A stretch of DNA of 64,000 nucleotides, taken from the NCBI RefSeq assembly GCF_044647545.1, contig NZ_CP172818.1; one strand, given 5' to 3'. Under the pieces are notes generated by a model. It was not told where the DNA came from and made no database searches. It saw only the letters and a list, made by a program, of their open reading frames with translations. A program made the position numbers and the translations under genes. This DNA is from Escherichia coli. GTDB lineage: Bacteria; Pseudomonadota; Gammaproteobacteria; Enterobacterales; Enterobacteriaceae. Shown here one piece after another: positions 34,336 through 43,761 of this stretch. The number at the start of each line of letters is the position of its first letter. Position 1 is the stretch's first letter.

Positions 34336-35112
34336 TCACCAGTCAAAACTTTTCACCAGCGTCAGCTCGCCAGCATTACGCATCGGTACAATAAATGTTT
34401 CCTGTTTCTCATTGACCGATCCTTCATCGGTGATCAGCGTCAGTTGGGCGGTGGTTAATTCCGTTTCGCTGCGTCCGCCATAGTAGTTGATATACACCTG
34501 ATAGCGCCCGTGAACTGGCGCTGGCATGGCGAAAATCTCGGGGCCGTACCCCGTCGTGACATCCATATCCAGTGCACCACTGTTGTTCAGCACGGTGTTA
34601 CCGTACCAAGCGTGTTCGCCATCGGGCGTAACAACGTGAAGGTCGAGGTCGGTATCGTCCGTATCCCACGAGAGAACCAGTCGTAAACGCGCGCGGATCA
34701 CTCCAGCACCCGGCGTTGAGTAAAACTGCATTTTTTGCCGGCTTTGCCCATCCGGGCTGATGACCTGCACGCTGTTGCTGCCTTCCGTGAAAATATAAGG
34801 GCGTGCAAATGAACCATCGGATTCAATTCTCTGCGGCATACTGGCACCGTTGACCACCAGCCGGCCCTGCTGAACTTTACCCGCCGCAGCATAATTCTTT
34901 ATTTTGCCGCGGATCTGCGCTGAGATATTTTGATCATCTGCCATGTTGACGGACGACGCCGGGTAATTGATCGATTGTGAAAAACTGGCATCTTCGCCCT
35001 CTGCCGGATGCCAGCCAGAGAGCGGTGCATCAATCTCGACTTCCTGCACACCTTCACTGTGAGCGACAGGCGAAAGCGCCACCAGTAACAACGGAAGAAA
35101 AATCTTTCGCAT
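34336..35112 (-). CDS. yfaP: Secreted protein YfaP (DUF2135 family), last gene of the yfaA-P operon
   Basis: 258-aa ORF with signal peptide (MRKIFLPLLLVALSPVAHSEG). Confidence 0.9.
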   Translation of the reverse strand: MRKIFLPLLLVALSPVAHSEGVQEVEIDAPLSGWHPAEGEDASFSQSINYPASSVNMADDQNISAQIRGKIKNYAAAGKVQQGRLVVNGASMPQRIESDGSFARPYIFTEGSNSVQVISPDGQSRQKMQFYSTPGAGVIRARLRLVLSWDTDDTDLDLHVVTPDGEHAWYGNTVLNNSGALDMDVTTGYGPEIFAMPAPVHGRYQVYINYYGGRSETELTTAQLTLITDEGSVNEKQETFIVPMRNAGELTLVKSFDW

Positions 35113-35116
35113 AGCA

Positions 35117-36766
35117 TTAGTCCATTAATAATTGTCGGGTCAGCGTTTCGATATAGTTCTCATCAAGCCCGGTGGGATAACCATCAAAGGCCAGGTGCAG
35201 ATACTCATGGGTTAAATCGAGCCGATCCTGAAGCGTAAAGAAGTTACGAATAAACAGCCGTTTCTGCTGCCGATCGGTATAGGGGAAACCTGAGATTAAA
35301 CGACAGACCGCAAACACGTCTGGTTCGTTGTACCCCATCTCGCCTTGTAATATACGCCGCCACTGCGGCATTTTTTTCGCCAGCCAGGCTTTCGCTTTGG
35401 GTAATAACTGGCAGGTTGAGCGTGGCGCTCCCCAGCGGCTAAGGCTGTTGTCGGGATAAGCAAACGCGAGTATCTGGTCGTAACGCTCTCCCTGCCCCGC
35501 CTGGGCCGTGGCTTGCCGCCAGGAAAGCGTCCCTTCGGTAGCGCGACTGCCGTGATAATGAACCGGATCGCCCGCATAGATAAGATCCTGCGTCCAGGCG
35601 GTCATCGTTCGCGCCCCCGTGGTAGCTGGCGAAGCCGAAACACGCTGTGTGGCGCTGCTGTCAGGGATGGTCAGGCAATCGCCTTCCCGATTGGCGTTTT
35701 GCTGTAAAAAAGTGCGTATCGCCACGGTCATGGCTTTCGCTGCCTCAGGGGGCGTACTTTTCGCCTCGCGATCCAGAACTCTGGCAACATACTCTTCACG
35801 ATCGAGATGCGACTGCAATTTCAGTTTGCCCTTTTCGCTCAGTAAGGTCGTCTCACCGTGGCTGACAAACGTAATGTGGTTACCATTGGCGAACGTCACA
35901 CGATAGCGCCCATTAAGTACGCCGGGTTTTACTGCCGTCGTACTCTTTTCCGCTGCGATTTTCTTCAGCGGATAGCGGGCAAACAGCTCCACCTCTACAC
36001 ATTGCCCACTGGCAACCTGCGTCGGCACTGGCAAAACCCGATTAAGCACCGTCGCATAACGGGTCAGTACCGTTTTGCTGGTGCCACTGCCAGTCACCCA
36101 TAGCGGTGTACCATCGGTTAACCAGCCGGCAAAACCACCCTGACGGATTTCCTGTTTATTATCGGCAAACCAGCTCCAGGTTTTCACCCGTACCCGACTA
36201 CCGAGCATAGATGCGACACCGATTTTCGCCTCGTCCAGCACCACATCCAGTAAGACTTCCTGAGCTTTGTTTTGCGCGGGTAACGTCGCTAATGAATCAA
36301 GCAGTGATTTAACCGTTACCGAGGTTTCTGGCTTCAGCGTAGTAAGAGACGCTAACCACGCAGGTGCCTGACGCTGTTGCCAGTATTGCCCCCACACATC
36401 TGCGCCAATATGCAACCGCTGCGGCGCAAAATAGAGCCCACAGGAACGTACCAGCGCGGTATCGCGCGTTATGCTCTCCCCTGCCTGACAACAATAAACC
36501 TCTTCCGGGGAGTTTCCGCGACACTGGTAGGGCTGCTCCGGTTGATGGGTATCCTCCAGCCAGGCGTAAACATACAGTTTCCATAAACTCCCTAACGGCG
36601 TGGTGAGCGTGTCAGGTAATGCCGAGACTTTGGTCACGCCTGACGACGATAACTGATACAGTTGGTCATGCTGCGCGCCCCGCAGCGCCAGTTGTAACGA
36701 CGTCTCCTCCGCAAGCGTTGGCAGAGTAACCAACGCTAATAGCCAGACGATTCTGCGCCAGTTCAC
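35117..36766 (-). CDS. yfaQ: Secreted protein YfaQ (DUF2300 family); contains a C-terminal HEYLH motif
   Basis: 549-aa ORF with signal peptide; GTG start abuts the yfaS stop. Confidence 0.9.
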   Translation of the reverse strand: MNWRRIVWLLALVTLPTLAEETSLQLALRGAQHDQLYQLSSSGVTKVSALPDTLTTPLGSLWKLYVYAWLEDTHQPEQPYQCRGNSPEEVYCCQAGESITRDTALVRSCGLYFAPQRLHIGADVWGQYWQQRQAPAWLASLTTLKPETSVTVKSLLDSLATLPAQNKAQEVLLDVVLDEAKIGVASMLGSRVRVKTWSWFADNKQEIRQGGFAGWLTDGTPLWVTGSGTSKTVLTRYATVLNRVLPVPTQVASGQCVEVELFARYPLKKIAAEKSTTAVKPGVLNGRYRVTFANGNHITFVSHGETTLLSEKGKLKLQSHLDREEYVARVLDREAKSTPPEAAKAMTVAIRTFLQQNANREGDCLTIPDSSATQRVSASPATTGARTMTAWTQDLIYAGDPVHYHGSRATEGTLSWRQATAQAGQGERYDQILAFAYPDNSLSRWGAPRSTCQLLPKAKAWLAKKMPQWRRILQGEMGYNEPDVFAVCRLISGFPYTDRQQKRLFIRNFFTLQDRLDLTHEYLHLAFDGYPTGLDENYIETLTRQLLMD

Positions 36767-41371: not shown

Positions 41372-41928
41372 CGGGTGTCCTTCCATGTCATAAGTTGTTG
41401 CAGACTGACTGCGCGCATTCCGTTGTCAGTTTTCGTGGCGCTTCCGGTGTGGTAGATGACGTAACGCCCCATCCAAACCATTAAGTGCTGGGCATCGCCC
41501 TGATCGAAAAAAATCATATCGCCAGGCAGCGCCTGGTTTATGTCCTGGCCAATAAATTGGCTGTTGTACTGAATCAAATTAATCGCGGTCACATAGGGGC
41601 CAGTTTTTCCGTTCCCCTGATTCCAGTTTTGCGCCAGTTGACGCTGTTCAGGTGTTAGCGTCATTTCAGGCGGCAAATATTGACTTGCTATACCGTTACT
41701 TTTTAGCCATTTGCTGTCGTGAATTTTCAGCGCCTCGTTCGCCGAAAATCGCACCAGGCCCGCACAATCCTGCTGATACCAGCGCGGACTTGGCCCCTGG
41801 CGGAGCTGTTCCTGTGCAATGCGTACAAACCACGCGCGAAACAGCCCGGATTGTTCGACATTCAGCATTTCGCTATGGGCAACAACACAACACAGCCAGC
41901 AAATCAGCGCCAGCAGTCCGTGCCTCAT
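41305..41928 (-). CDS. yfaT: Secreted protein YfaT (DUF1175 family)
   Basis: ORF track starts at 41955; conserved start [11 protein letters not shown] at 41928 (207 aa); start overlaps yfaA stop (ATGA); 3' end overlaps the yfaS start by about 67 nt. Confidence 0.88.
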
Positions 41929-43613
41929 AGCGGCTGCCAGGTTATGGGTAGCCACTGCCAGGCGGCACCGGGTTCCATCTGTGCCAGCTTCATGACATAA
42001 CGCGGTTGTTGAGATAAAGCGTCCAGCTTCGGCATTAATAAAGTTTGTGCGGCATTATAAAAAACCGGTTCGAGATTCTTCGGCAAACTGGTCAGCGTTT
42101 CGTTACGCAGCAGTTTCGCCACGCCTTGTGGATTGATATAGAGCGGAACGATGCCGTCAGTGGGTATCACATCCACCATTGCCGGGCGGGTTTTATTCAG
42201 TGTTTGCAGCGCGTTATTAACCAGCGTGTCATCGAGGGAGAAAAGCAGCGTTTTGTTTTGCATCGCCAGCGACACGCGGAAAAAATAATCCGACATTAAT
42301 TGATCGGGTTGCGCCGCCTGCGCTTTCGGATACTGGCCGTATCGGGAACTCACTTCGCGACGCCAGATTTGCGCTTCGCCCTGCTGCGTCTGGTTTACCG
42401 GCAAAACACCTTCTGGCGCTTTGCTTTCGTGCGCACCAATATTTTGCGTAAACAGTTTCCCAGGCAGTTGTGCCTGTTCGGCTGAGCCATCAAATTGACC
42501 AACAAATAGCGGGGTTTGTAATTTTGAGTCTTCATACCAGCACAGCCCGGCTGCACCATCTAACGCCCCGTTCAGCTTGTCGTTTTCCTGGCTGATGTGC
42601 GAAAGCATCTCTTCGGCAATACCATGCGAATACGGCACCGCCACACAGAAGCTGGCCCCGGCAGGCATACTGTTCCATACCGGCGTAAAATCGAAACTGG
42701 CATCTACGCTGGCGGATTCATCATTTAACGCCACAAAGCTATGCCAGCTGTCGTTGCTCATTTCGAAGCGTACGCCAGCAAAAGAAGGCATTAATCGCTG
42801 GTAGCCAAACCCCAGCAACCTGGCGCTGACAACAATACGCTGGCGTACTGGCGTTTTTTCAGCAGCACGCTCTTCCAGGCCAAAGCTGGCTTGCCAGCGT
42901 TTTTTACCGCTCAACAAATCACTTGCGATCGCCGTGGCTTCGGTATCCTGTTGGTCATCTTTAAACAGCATATCCGAACTGGAAAACGCCAATATTTTGT
43001 CCTGATAAGTCGCAAACATCAGGACGTTATTGCCGTTATAGCGCAACTGATAAACAGGAATAGTTTCACTATTTATCTTGATGCTACTAATTTCCGTCTT
43101 GCTTAACTGGCTGTCGCTGGTGGCGGCAAACAGCAATGGCTCCAGCAGTTTGCTTAAACCACTACGCTGGATCAGCACCATATAATGAGAAAGATGGCCT
43201 TGTTTATCGTGCCACAGTGCCGCCTGCGCGGGCTGGTCTAAGAGTGACGAAAAGAGCTTATCTTTCAGCGTGAGATCGTGTTCATAGACAATGCGGCGAA
43301 TGCTGCCTTCAATGCCCAGACGATCGGCATGATTCTGATAATAGAAAACGAAATCTTCGCTCAGAACATCGTGGAGAAACGGAATGGTAAGGAGATCGTT
43401 GGGAAGCTGGCTCAGAGAGTCGCTGTCGAGAAAGAGGTCCGGCTCATTGAGATCGATTTGCAGATTGTTGTGCACCACCAGTGGCGACAACGTTTTTTCT
43501 GGCCCACTGCCAGAGTATTGTAATGCCCATACGCCAGCGGATAGCAGCGCTATTGCCCCAAAACCAACAAGGCCATAAAACCGCCAGCCTTTCGCCTTTT
43601 TTTCACCACTCAT
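41925..43613 (-). CDS. yfaA: Membrane-anchored protein YfaA (DUF2138 family), first gene of the operon
   Basis: ORF track starts at 43661 (TTG); conserved start [12 protein letters not shown] at 43613; N-terminal TM anchor. Confidence 0.88.
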
Positions 43614-43761
43614 TGCCACATTCCTTGTGTATAGCCAGCCATTTTTTACGGGCACAGCCAAACTTTACCGCGCCCTAATACGACAAAAGCCCAGACTTTA
43701 CAGCCTGGACTTTTCAATTCAAAAAAGGGAGATGGCTCCCTTTTGGCATGAAGCGATGAAA

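Follow-up and report, generated by a model that had tools for sequence, protein, structure and literature searches.

Bacterial alpha-2-macroglobulins (A2Ms) were described as a family in 2004 by Budd et al. (as cited in PMC5764988), and the closest described relative of the system considered here is the six-gene mag operon of Pseudomonas aeruginosa. Here we compare the described systems with the yfa locus of Escherichia coli (yfaA, yfaT, yfaS, yfaQ and yfaP), which occupies positions 34336-43761 of a 64,000-nt stretch of contig NZ_CP172818.1; this whole stretch is called the window, and all coordinates are positions in it. The A2M of the mag operon, MagD, is periplasmic and inner-membrane-associated, and it co-purifies with MagA, MagB and MagF; all three are degraded in a magD deletion, while MagE is stable without MagD (PMC3735191). 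MagD carrying an engineered tobacco etch virus (TEV) protease site in its bait region is cleaved, and with no thioester it keeps hold of the TEV protease. It also forms 1:1 complexes with MagA, MagB and MagF, and MagB anchors and stabilises the complex at the inner membrane by its single transmembrane helix (PMC5764988). MagC, a DUF1175 protein, binds peptidoglycan and is described as inactive, with no cleavage, in PMC10318531, which cites FEBS Lett 2021. The mag operon is part of the GacA regulon, and its magD gene confers protection from VgrG3 and Tae1, two peptidoglycan-targeting type VI secretion system (T6SS) effectors (PMC12663445).

The type I A2Ms, such as ECAM/YfhM of E. coli and Sa-A2M of Salmonella (with PBP1c), have the MG2, bait-region, A2M and bacterial MG10 domains in common with YfaS. 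Like the YfaS type they are periplasmic and associated with the inner membrane, and protection of the periplasm together with a peptidoglycan-directed partner has been proposed for them. They carry a CxEQ thioester and a lipobox and adjoin pbpC, whereas YfaS has GVIN at the corresponding site, yfaT and yfaQ as neighbours and four other partners.

We conclude that Escherichia has in the yfa locus its orthologue of the Mag (type II A2M) operon, in the five-gene enterobacterial form without magA, that an intact copy would act as a non-covalent trap in the periplasm, and that in this genome yfaS is inactivated by a premature stop codon; for these statements taken together we put the probability at about 0.8. 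The system is already known and partly characterised, being a member of the described Mag family. A sequence-only reading of the window had singled it out as the best candidate for an under-described system, a view that does not survive the description of the family in 2004, the biochemistry in P. aeruginosa, a MagC structure and a deletion phenotype. The same reading held that the function of the locus in E. coli had yet to be settled, which agrees with the literature insofar as our literature searches turned up no work that treats the E. coli operon as a system; YfaS is called uncharacterised in a 2024 paper (PMC10882980), and the one phenotype reported is the altered morphology of a yfaQ deletion (PMC12282094).

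Layout of the yfa operon

Open reading frames (ORFs) and the RefSeq annotation agree on five co-directional minus-strand yfa genes at the positions first proposed, and a number of complete E. coli chromosomes, ECONIH1 and IMT16316 among them, have the region with 100% identity. The genes and the sites within yfaS that matter for the argument are as follows.

41925-43613, minus strand: yfaA, 562 aa, DUF2138, N-terminal transmembrane anchor (residues ~13-33), MagB orthologue
41305-41928, minus strand: yfaT, 207 aa, DUF1175 (Pfam 'MagC'), NlpC/P60-like, signal peptide, MagC orthologue
36767-41371, minus strand: yfaS from ATG 41371, a frame of 1534 codons with an internal TAG, MagD orthologue
39275-41371, minus strand: 5' part of yfaS, codons 1-699, with a probable signal peptide, N-terminal MG domains and the start of the bait-region domain
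39272-39274, minus strand: in-frame TAG of yfaS, Gln700 to stop, from the translation and the RefSeq remark 'internal stop'
36767-39271, minus strand: 3' part of yfaS, codons 701-1534, with the remaining bait-region domain, A2M, thioester-domain-like region and bMG10
38156-38167, minus strand: degenerate thioester site G1069-V-I-N1072, placed by alignment to A2Ms
35117-36766, minus strand: yfaQ, 549 aa, signal peptide, two DUF2300, SpoIID-like segment, MagE orthologue
34336-35112, minus strand: yfaP, 258 aa, signal peptide, DUF2135/YfaP_C, MagF orthologue (MagA is a paralogue)

The yfaS entry in RefSeq, named 'alpha-2-macroglobulin family protein', spans 36767-41281, and codons 701-1534 are not translated as part of YfaS in this genome. 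The tight junctions reported earlier are borne out: an ATGA overlap between yfaA and yfaT can be read in the sequence, the TAA of yfaS abuts the GTG of yfaQ in the same frame (36764-36769), and the gap between yfaQ and yfaP is 4 nt. E. coli proteins of 1359-1422 aa (P0037, P0040, P0057 and P0059) that combine A2M, SpoIID and DUF2300 domains resemble YfaS-YfaQ fusions, and may be set beside the frame shared by yfaS and yfaQ, in which a TAA followed by a GTG is the sole separator.

Orthology with the Mag operon

The five products match those of P. aeruginosa mag: YfaA corresponds to MagB (DUF2138, a single transmembrane helix), YfaT to MagC (DUF1175), YfaS to MagD, YfaQ to MagE (two DUF2300 and a SpoIID-like segment) and YfaP to MagF (YfaP_C). 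Over at least 96% of its length, YfaS shares 54-57% identity with A2Ms encoded in mag-type operons of Pseudomonas, Serratia and Yersinia, and the figure of ~55% for MagD orthologues refers to the genus Pseudomonas, P. aeruginosa itself not being among the compared loci. This orthology, together with the absence of CxEQ, upholds the assignment of YfaS to the MagD type and not to the ECAM/YfhM type.

Scanning species-representative genomes with a YfaA profile gave 247 loci, the best 80 of which were compared. Every Pseudomonas locus reads P-A-T-S-Q-P (each letter being the last of a yfa gene name) and 15 of 15 Enterobacterales loci read A-T-S-Q-P, save for cuts at contig ends; in mag terms, the order B-C-D-E-F is the same in 83 related loci except those cut by a contig end. 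The neighbours of the P. citronellolis gene (YfaP_C, DUF2138, MagC, A2M, DUF2300, YfaP_C) form the six-gene mag layout, and Serratia and Yersinia have the five-gene layout of E. coli. The likeness in gene order to the Pseudomonas operon that had been noted earlier is borne out in the relatives compared. The flanking genes differ between genera, and the genes thus travel as one unit.

In addition to gene order, yfa and mag have in common their tight junctions, the signal peptides (a probable one in YfaS) on all but the membrane-anchored product, and the lack of a thioester cysteine. They differ in that mag comprises six genes and yfa five, the missing one being the magF paralogue magA: upstream of yfaA there is no YfaP_C paralogue, gyrA ending at a distance of 148 nt, and magA is absent from 15 of 15 Enterobacterales loci. 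Further differences are the thioester relic (GVIN against GVEQ), a 67-nt overlap of yfaS and yfaT in Escherichia, the chromosomal context between gyrA and ato, and the fact that the MagD orthologue is a pseudogene in this genome.

Some related loci deviate from the common layout. In E. albertii NBRC 107761 (locus L008, 9896-11695) yfaA is split into two ORFs, in Serratia microhaemolytica (L030, 17181-17597) yfaQ is reduced to 139 aa, and in P. viridiflava (L044) no downstream magF-type ORF was detected. Two Pseudomonas loci (L032, 1824-7730, and L038, 3021-8924, both on the minus strand) carry a type I A2M directly upstream of, and divergent from, the mag-type operon; these proteins of ~1969 aa have the motif CTEQ and score only 52-55 bits against the YfaS profile.

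Domains and structures of the five products

Profile searches were consistent with this assignment. YfaT matches DUF1175 (E = 4e-58) and, weakly, NlpC/P60 (E = 0.0016), and it aligns without gaps to PDB entry 7BK8, 'MagC', at 74% identity over 186 residues; its catalytic-type residues C55, H148 and H160, a Cys-His-His set of the NlpC/P60 kind, show at least 97% conservation across 83 orthologues. YfaQ contains DUF2300 twice (E = 3e-45 and 5e-43) and SpoIID at residues 312-374 (E = 1.4e-5), with a SpoIID-type catalytic motif, REEYVARVLDRE, that is at least 97% conserved in ~80 orthologues. The conserved residues of YfaT and the YfaQ motif fit a link to peptidoglycan. YfaS was run as the two halves of its read-through translation: the 5' part matches MG2 (E = 3e-19) and, at residues 661-693, the beginning of A2M_BRD, the 3' part A2M_BRD (E = 1e-10), A2M (E = 3e-12) and bMG10 (E = 1e-5). 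YfaP matches DUF2135 (E = 6e-17) and YfaA DUF2138. The partners had been presented as DUF-only proteins with no assigned biochemistry, a description overtaken by the current Pfam names, 'MagC' for PF06672 and 'YfaP_C' for PF09906, and by the MagC structure 7BK8.

AlphaFold models of YfaA and YfaP, built on alignments of 35 and 54 sequences, have mean pLDDT values of 80 and 78, respectively. The YfaA model consists of an N-terminal helix followed by alpha/beta modules and weakly resembles TP0453, the PknH sensor domain, DcrB and LpqN (Z <=7.2); that of YfaP has two beta-sandwich domains with generic Ig/FnIII/TerD/MG-like matches only (Z <=7.8), and as predicted structures the two point to no function. 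NCBIfam had no match for four of the products and, for YfaA, an equivalog that says no more than 'hypothetical protein', and phmmer against the PDB gave no match for YfaA, YfaQ, YfaP or the C-terminal 834 residues of YfaS.

An envelope-located multi-gene cassette whose flanks vary between genera could also be read as an anti-phage defence system instead of a trap for proteases or effectors. We give this almost no credence: none of 5027 PADLOC models matched any of the six protein segments at E <= 0.01, Pfam detected no domains of nuclease, ATPase or abortive-infection type in the five products, and the published phenotypes concern proteases and T6SS effectors (PMC5764988, PMC12663445).

A degenerate thioester site

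The sequence-only reading found no CxEQ in YfaS, and there is indeed none anywhere in the protein, which has only three cysteines; the canonical site reads G1069-V-I-N1072. The aligned site is YSCTEQ in type I A2Ms, GGVIN in Escherichia, Serratia and Yersinia, and GGVEQ in most Pseudomonas, with GVIN or GVVN as the variants in Enterobacterales. An intact GCVEQ occurs in 15 of the 80 species representatives, all of them Pseudomonas with full six-gene operons, and the term 'thioester-less' accordingly holds for E. coli and is not universal for the macroglobulins of Mag operons. Their loci, in which the site aligns to 38156-38167 of the window, are L003, L019-L023, L025, L028, L033, L038, L041, L043, L049, L052 and L084. 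A rough neighbour-joining tree places the CVEQ forms on several of the early branches within Pseudomonas, a distribution that suggests repeated loss of the cysteine among Mag-operon A2Ms. We also considered a pairing of the orthologues' CVEQ with the RVEQ found at the E. coli stop codon, and discarded it as the alignment puts CVEQ at the canonical thioester site.

A premature stop codon in yfaS

YfaS was initially taken as an uninterrupted ORF of ~1534 codons, and this has to be revised: codon 700, CAG in K-12, is TAG (39272-39274), and the RefSeq record, which has the identical sequence, lists yfaS as a pseudogene with an 'internal stop'. The stop falls inside the Pfam bait-region domain, positions 2-30 of the A2M_BRD model matching just upstream of it and positions 53-140 just downstream. 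Judged from its sequence, the truncated YfaS would be without the bait, the A2M domain, the thioester-domain-like region and bMG10.

Alleles were counted in a set of 5426 complete E. coli genomes by means of 55-mers with the variant base at their centre, which forces each 28-nt megablast seed to include it. The TAG700 allele occurs in 51 genomes, including a strain named ST648, and CAG700 in at least 4372. That the TAG is an assembly error, or is read through so efficiently that full-length functional YfaS is made, is compatible with its being a single C-to-T change in a frame that is otherwise intact and conserved downstream. Its presence in 51 independently sequenced complete genomes argues that it is not a sequencing error, the NCBI annotation pipeline PGAP marks the internal stop, and no suppressor tRNA or recoding signal is known, nor was one seen at the locus, where an Rfam scan of 34000-44200 was empty; we consider this explanation highly improbable.

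K-12 carries the same gene as yfaS' (b4500) in the same operon, likewise with a single nonsense codon and four intact partners, and its lesion is independent: TGA at codon 1368 (W1368*, TGG in the window), an allele found in 364 genomes, essentially K-12 laboratory derivatives. Strain STEC299, from a marmot (L094), has the same CAG-to-TAG change at codon 700, in a yfaS with 155 nt differences from that of the window and a closer resemblance to a phylogroup-B2-like allele. The two alleles already differ 55 nt upstream and 11 nt downstream of the TAG. Had a recombination patch brought the stop into STEC299, it would have to be <66 nt, and this origin was rejected; on the sequences compared, Q700* most likely arose in this strain a second time, independently.

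Recurrent loss raises the question whether E. coli can do without the whole operon and is losing it by decay, with the yfaS stop as one neutral lesion of many and no component functional in this genome. yfaS has been knocked out independently at least three times, by Q700* on two alleles differing at 155 nt and by W1368* in K-12, and many truncated E. coli YfaS variants are found in the protein collection. Among eight sampled CAG700 genomes yfaT is disrupted by a prophage in one and yfaA or yfaS 'frameshifted' in two, prophages are known to integrate at yfaT (PMC3603311, PMC7192596), yfaQ is missing in ~2% of 131,610 genomes (PMC12282094), and the operon lies in a single contiguous piece in only 5178 of the 5426 genomes. 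Against this, the locus is present at 95% identity or more in 5397 of them, and intact yfaS is by far the commonest form: the 1504-aa protein is the norm (cluster P0003, with 40,950 member sequences), and yfaS is intact in seven of the eight sampled genomes. Moreover, some of the 'frameshifted' calls may be long-read assembly errors. Within Escherichia dN/dS is 0.02-0.16 for all five genes, which argues that they have long been functional coding genes and that the yfaS lesions are recent. We therefore hold general decay to be doubtful. In E. coli E2865 (L086, locus 1-997) only the last 90 nt of yfaT are left, beside the effector gene nleA; this remnant fits a prophage insertion, as yfaT is listed as a phage integration site at which the gene is disrupted (PMC3603311, PMC7192596).

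Proposed mechanism

Where the operon is intact, the five proteins would be exported to the periplasm. By analogy with P. aeruginosa, YfaA (MagB) would anchor YfaS (MagD) to the inner membrane by its single transmembrane helix, YfaP (MagF) would bind YfaS, and YfaT (MagC, NlpC/P60-like) would connect the complex to peptidoglycan. A connection of YfaQ (MagE) to peptidoglycan is suggested by its SpoIID-like segment and by the phenotype of a yfaQ deletion in K-12. YfaS itself would be a non-covalent trap that, once its bait has been cleaved, holds the attacking enzyme with no thioester bond; it may thereby shield cell wall and periplasm against hydrolases that enter from outside, for example type VI effectors directed at peptidoglycan. 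We infer anchoring, binding of MagF to MagD, peptidoglycan binding by MagC and trapping for E. coli because they have been shown in P. aeruginosa and the proteins are orthologous.

In the genome studied here the CAG-to-TAG change at codon 700 truncates YfaS in the bait-region domain and disables the trap, and the system is probably non-functional. A five-protein complex of fixed stoichiometry, as envisaged by the sequence-only reading, cannot form in this genome, where yfaS has a premature stop. The partners are likely to be destabilised, if one goes by the breakdown of MagA, MagB and MagF when magD is deleted; yfaQ and yfaP probably lose their translational coupling to yfaS, and the stop may exert polarity on both.

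Several points weigh against this account. We found no experiment on the E. coli proteins as a complex in the literature, and trapping by MagD has been shown only with an engineered TEV site (PMC5764988). The mechanism may differ in detail from that in Pseudomonas, given that Enterobacterales are without magA and their thioester site is more degenerate, GVIN against GVEQ. No promoter was identified for the operon, and the 148-nt spacer upstream of yfaA holds no sigma-70 site with at least 9 of 12 consensus matches. TAG700 may be read through at a low level. Lastly, the partners may work without the macroglobulin: neither the window nor K-12 nor any of four further TAG700 genomes has a broken ORF for yfaA, yfaT, yfaQ or yfaP, and a yfaQ deletion has a cell-width phenotype in K-12, which is without functional yfaS (PMC12282094).

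The last point can be extended to an explanation in which the four partners constitute a module for peptidoglycan remodelling or repair, independent of the macroglobulin, so that loss of yfaS in this lineage, and separately in K-12 and STEC299, removes only an accessory trap and leaves the operon functional. Besides the intact partner ORFs, the conservation of YfaT C55/H148/H160 and of the YfaQ motif speaks for such a module, as does the stability of MagE without MagD (PMC3735191). In K-12, naturally yfaS-null, cells with the yfaQ deletion are wider, and the deletion profile correlates with those of mepS, mepK, nlpI and other envelope mutants (PMC12282094). That MagA, MagB and MagF undergo degradation without MagD in P. 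aeruginosa points the other way (PMC3735191), and DUF1175 is described as inactive, binding peptidoglycan without cleaving it (PMC10318531). The yfaS losses are also too recent to show later selection on the partners, only two substitutions being present within the TAG700 lineage, and the passages of PMC12282094 consulted present the phenotype of the Keio yfaQ deletion without complementation. We regard an independent partner module as a tentative alternative, on balance unlikely, to the trap complex.

N-terminus and start codon of yfaS

All five N-termini have a hydrophobic segment resembling a signal sequence or an anchor, and the view that the products are directed to the envelope stands. 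For YfaS this depends on the start codon. ATG 41371 is preceded by the Shine-Dalgarno sequence GGAAGGA and is the sole start that gives a hydrophobic signal sequence, whereas the RefSeq start, GTG 41281, yields a YfaS without a signal peptide. The 67-nt overlap of yfaT and yfaS claimed earlier exists if translation begins at ATG 41371; with the RefSeq start the two genes are separated by a gap of 23 nt. In Yersinia, Edaphovirga, Serratia oryzae and some Pseudomonas an ATG lies over the yfaT stop (ATGA). Escherichia has no ATG at this position, which makes ATG 41371 a plausible start, and the 67-nt overlap would be a consequence of the missing ancestral ATGA. From ATG 41371, inspection of the sequence shows a hydrophobic core and an ANA/DD cleavage-like site, as well as a lipobox-like IAAC (Cys25) that is present in Escherichia YfaS and not conserved in other genera. 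Two upstream ATGs (MEGHPMDT; 41281-41386) are kept in every genus, since they are what YfaT's invariant C-terminal TWKDTRWIP gives when read in the +1 frame.

Flanking signals: terminators and leader

Upstream of the operon lies gyrA (43762-46389), transcribed in the same direction, and downstream the convergent ato operon. The intergenic features are listed below.

43721-43744, minus strand: terminator hairpin 1, AAAAGGGAG-CCAT-CTCCCTTTTTT
43685-43714, minus strand: terminator hairpin 2, AAAAGTCCAGGCT-GTAA-AGTCTGGGCTTTT
43614-43684, minus strand: presumed operon promoter and leader, ~70 nt between terminator 2 and the yfaA ATG
34268-34305, no strand assigned: GC-rich hairpin between yfaP and atoB, which converge here, with T runs on either strand

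The first ~80 nt of the 148-nt spacer between the gyrA stop and yfaA (43614-43761) are taken up by two strong terminator hairpins, which were identified from the fold and by eye, the consensus scan not having listed them. The RNA fold of 43614-43770 has a free energy of -59.4 kcal/mol (z = -5.1 against shuffles), and in an alignment of Escherichia species both stems are kept and the loops vary. These tandem intrinsic terminators insulate the yfa operon from gyrA read-through. The promoter had been placed in this same spacer; the spacer is there, and a promoter within it was not confirmed, given the lack of a sigma-70 consensus match. By position we presume that it lies in 43614-43684.

At the downstream end a consensus scan gave a terminator-like site at 34275-34296 on the plus strand, and the minus strand here reads AAAACGCCCGATAACTTTCGCTATCGGGTGTTTTT; the hairpin at 34268-34305 is probably a bidirectional terminator common to yfaP and atoB.

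According to the same Escherichia alignment, the final 25 nt of the leader, ACACAAGGAATGTGGCA-ATG, are invariant in the genus. Within it (43614-43640), ACAAGGAAUGU overlaps the Shine-Dalgarno sequence; it resembles a CsrA/RsmA binding site, and is no more than a lead. The P. aeruginosa mag operon is RsmA-regulated, and it is for this reason that such an element in the yfaA leader would be of interest.

Implications

With the trap truncated here and in K-12, modelling or pull-down of the five-protein complex from this strain or from K-12 would fail, and an isolate with intact yfaS is needed. It is conceivable, if rather unlikely in our judgement, that the macroglobulin is the expendable part of the system in E. 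coli and the four partners form an autonomous peptidoglycan module; were this true, it would explain the cell-width phenotype of the K-12 yfaQ deletion. On this reading, loss of the trap may even be favoured in some lineages. The natural yfaS-null lineages (ST648-like strains, K-12 and STEC299), placed beside their intact relatives, constitute ready isogenic-like material on which the role of the Escherichia macroglobulin and its partners can be tested.

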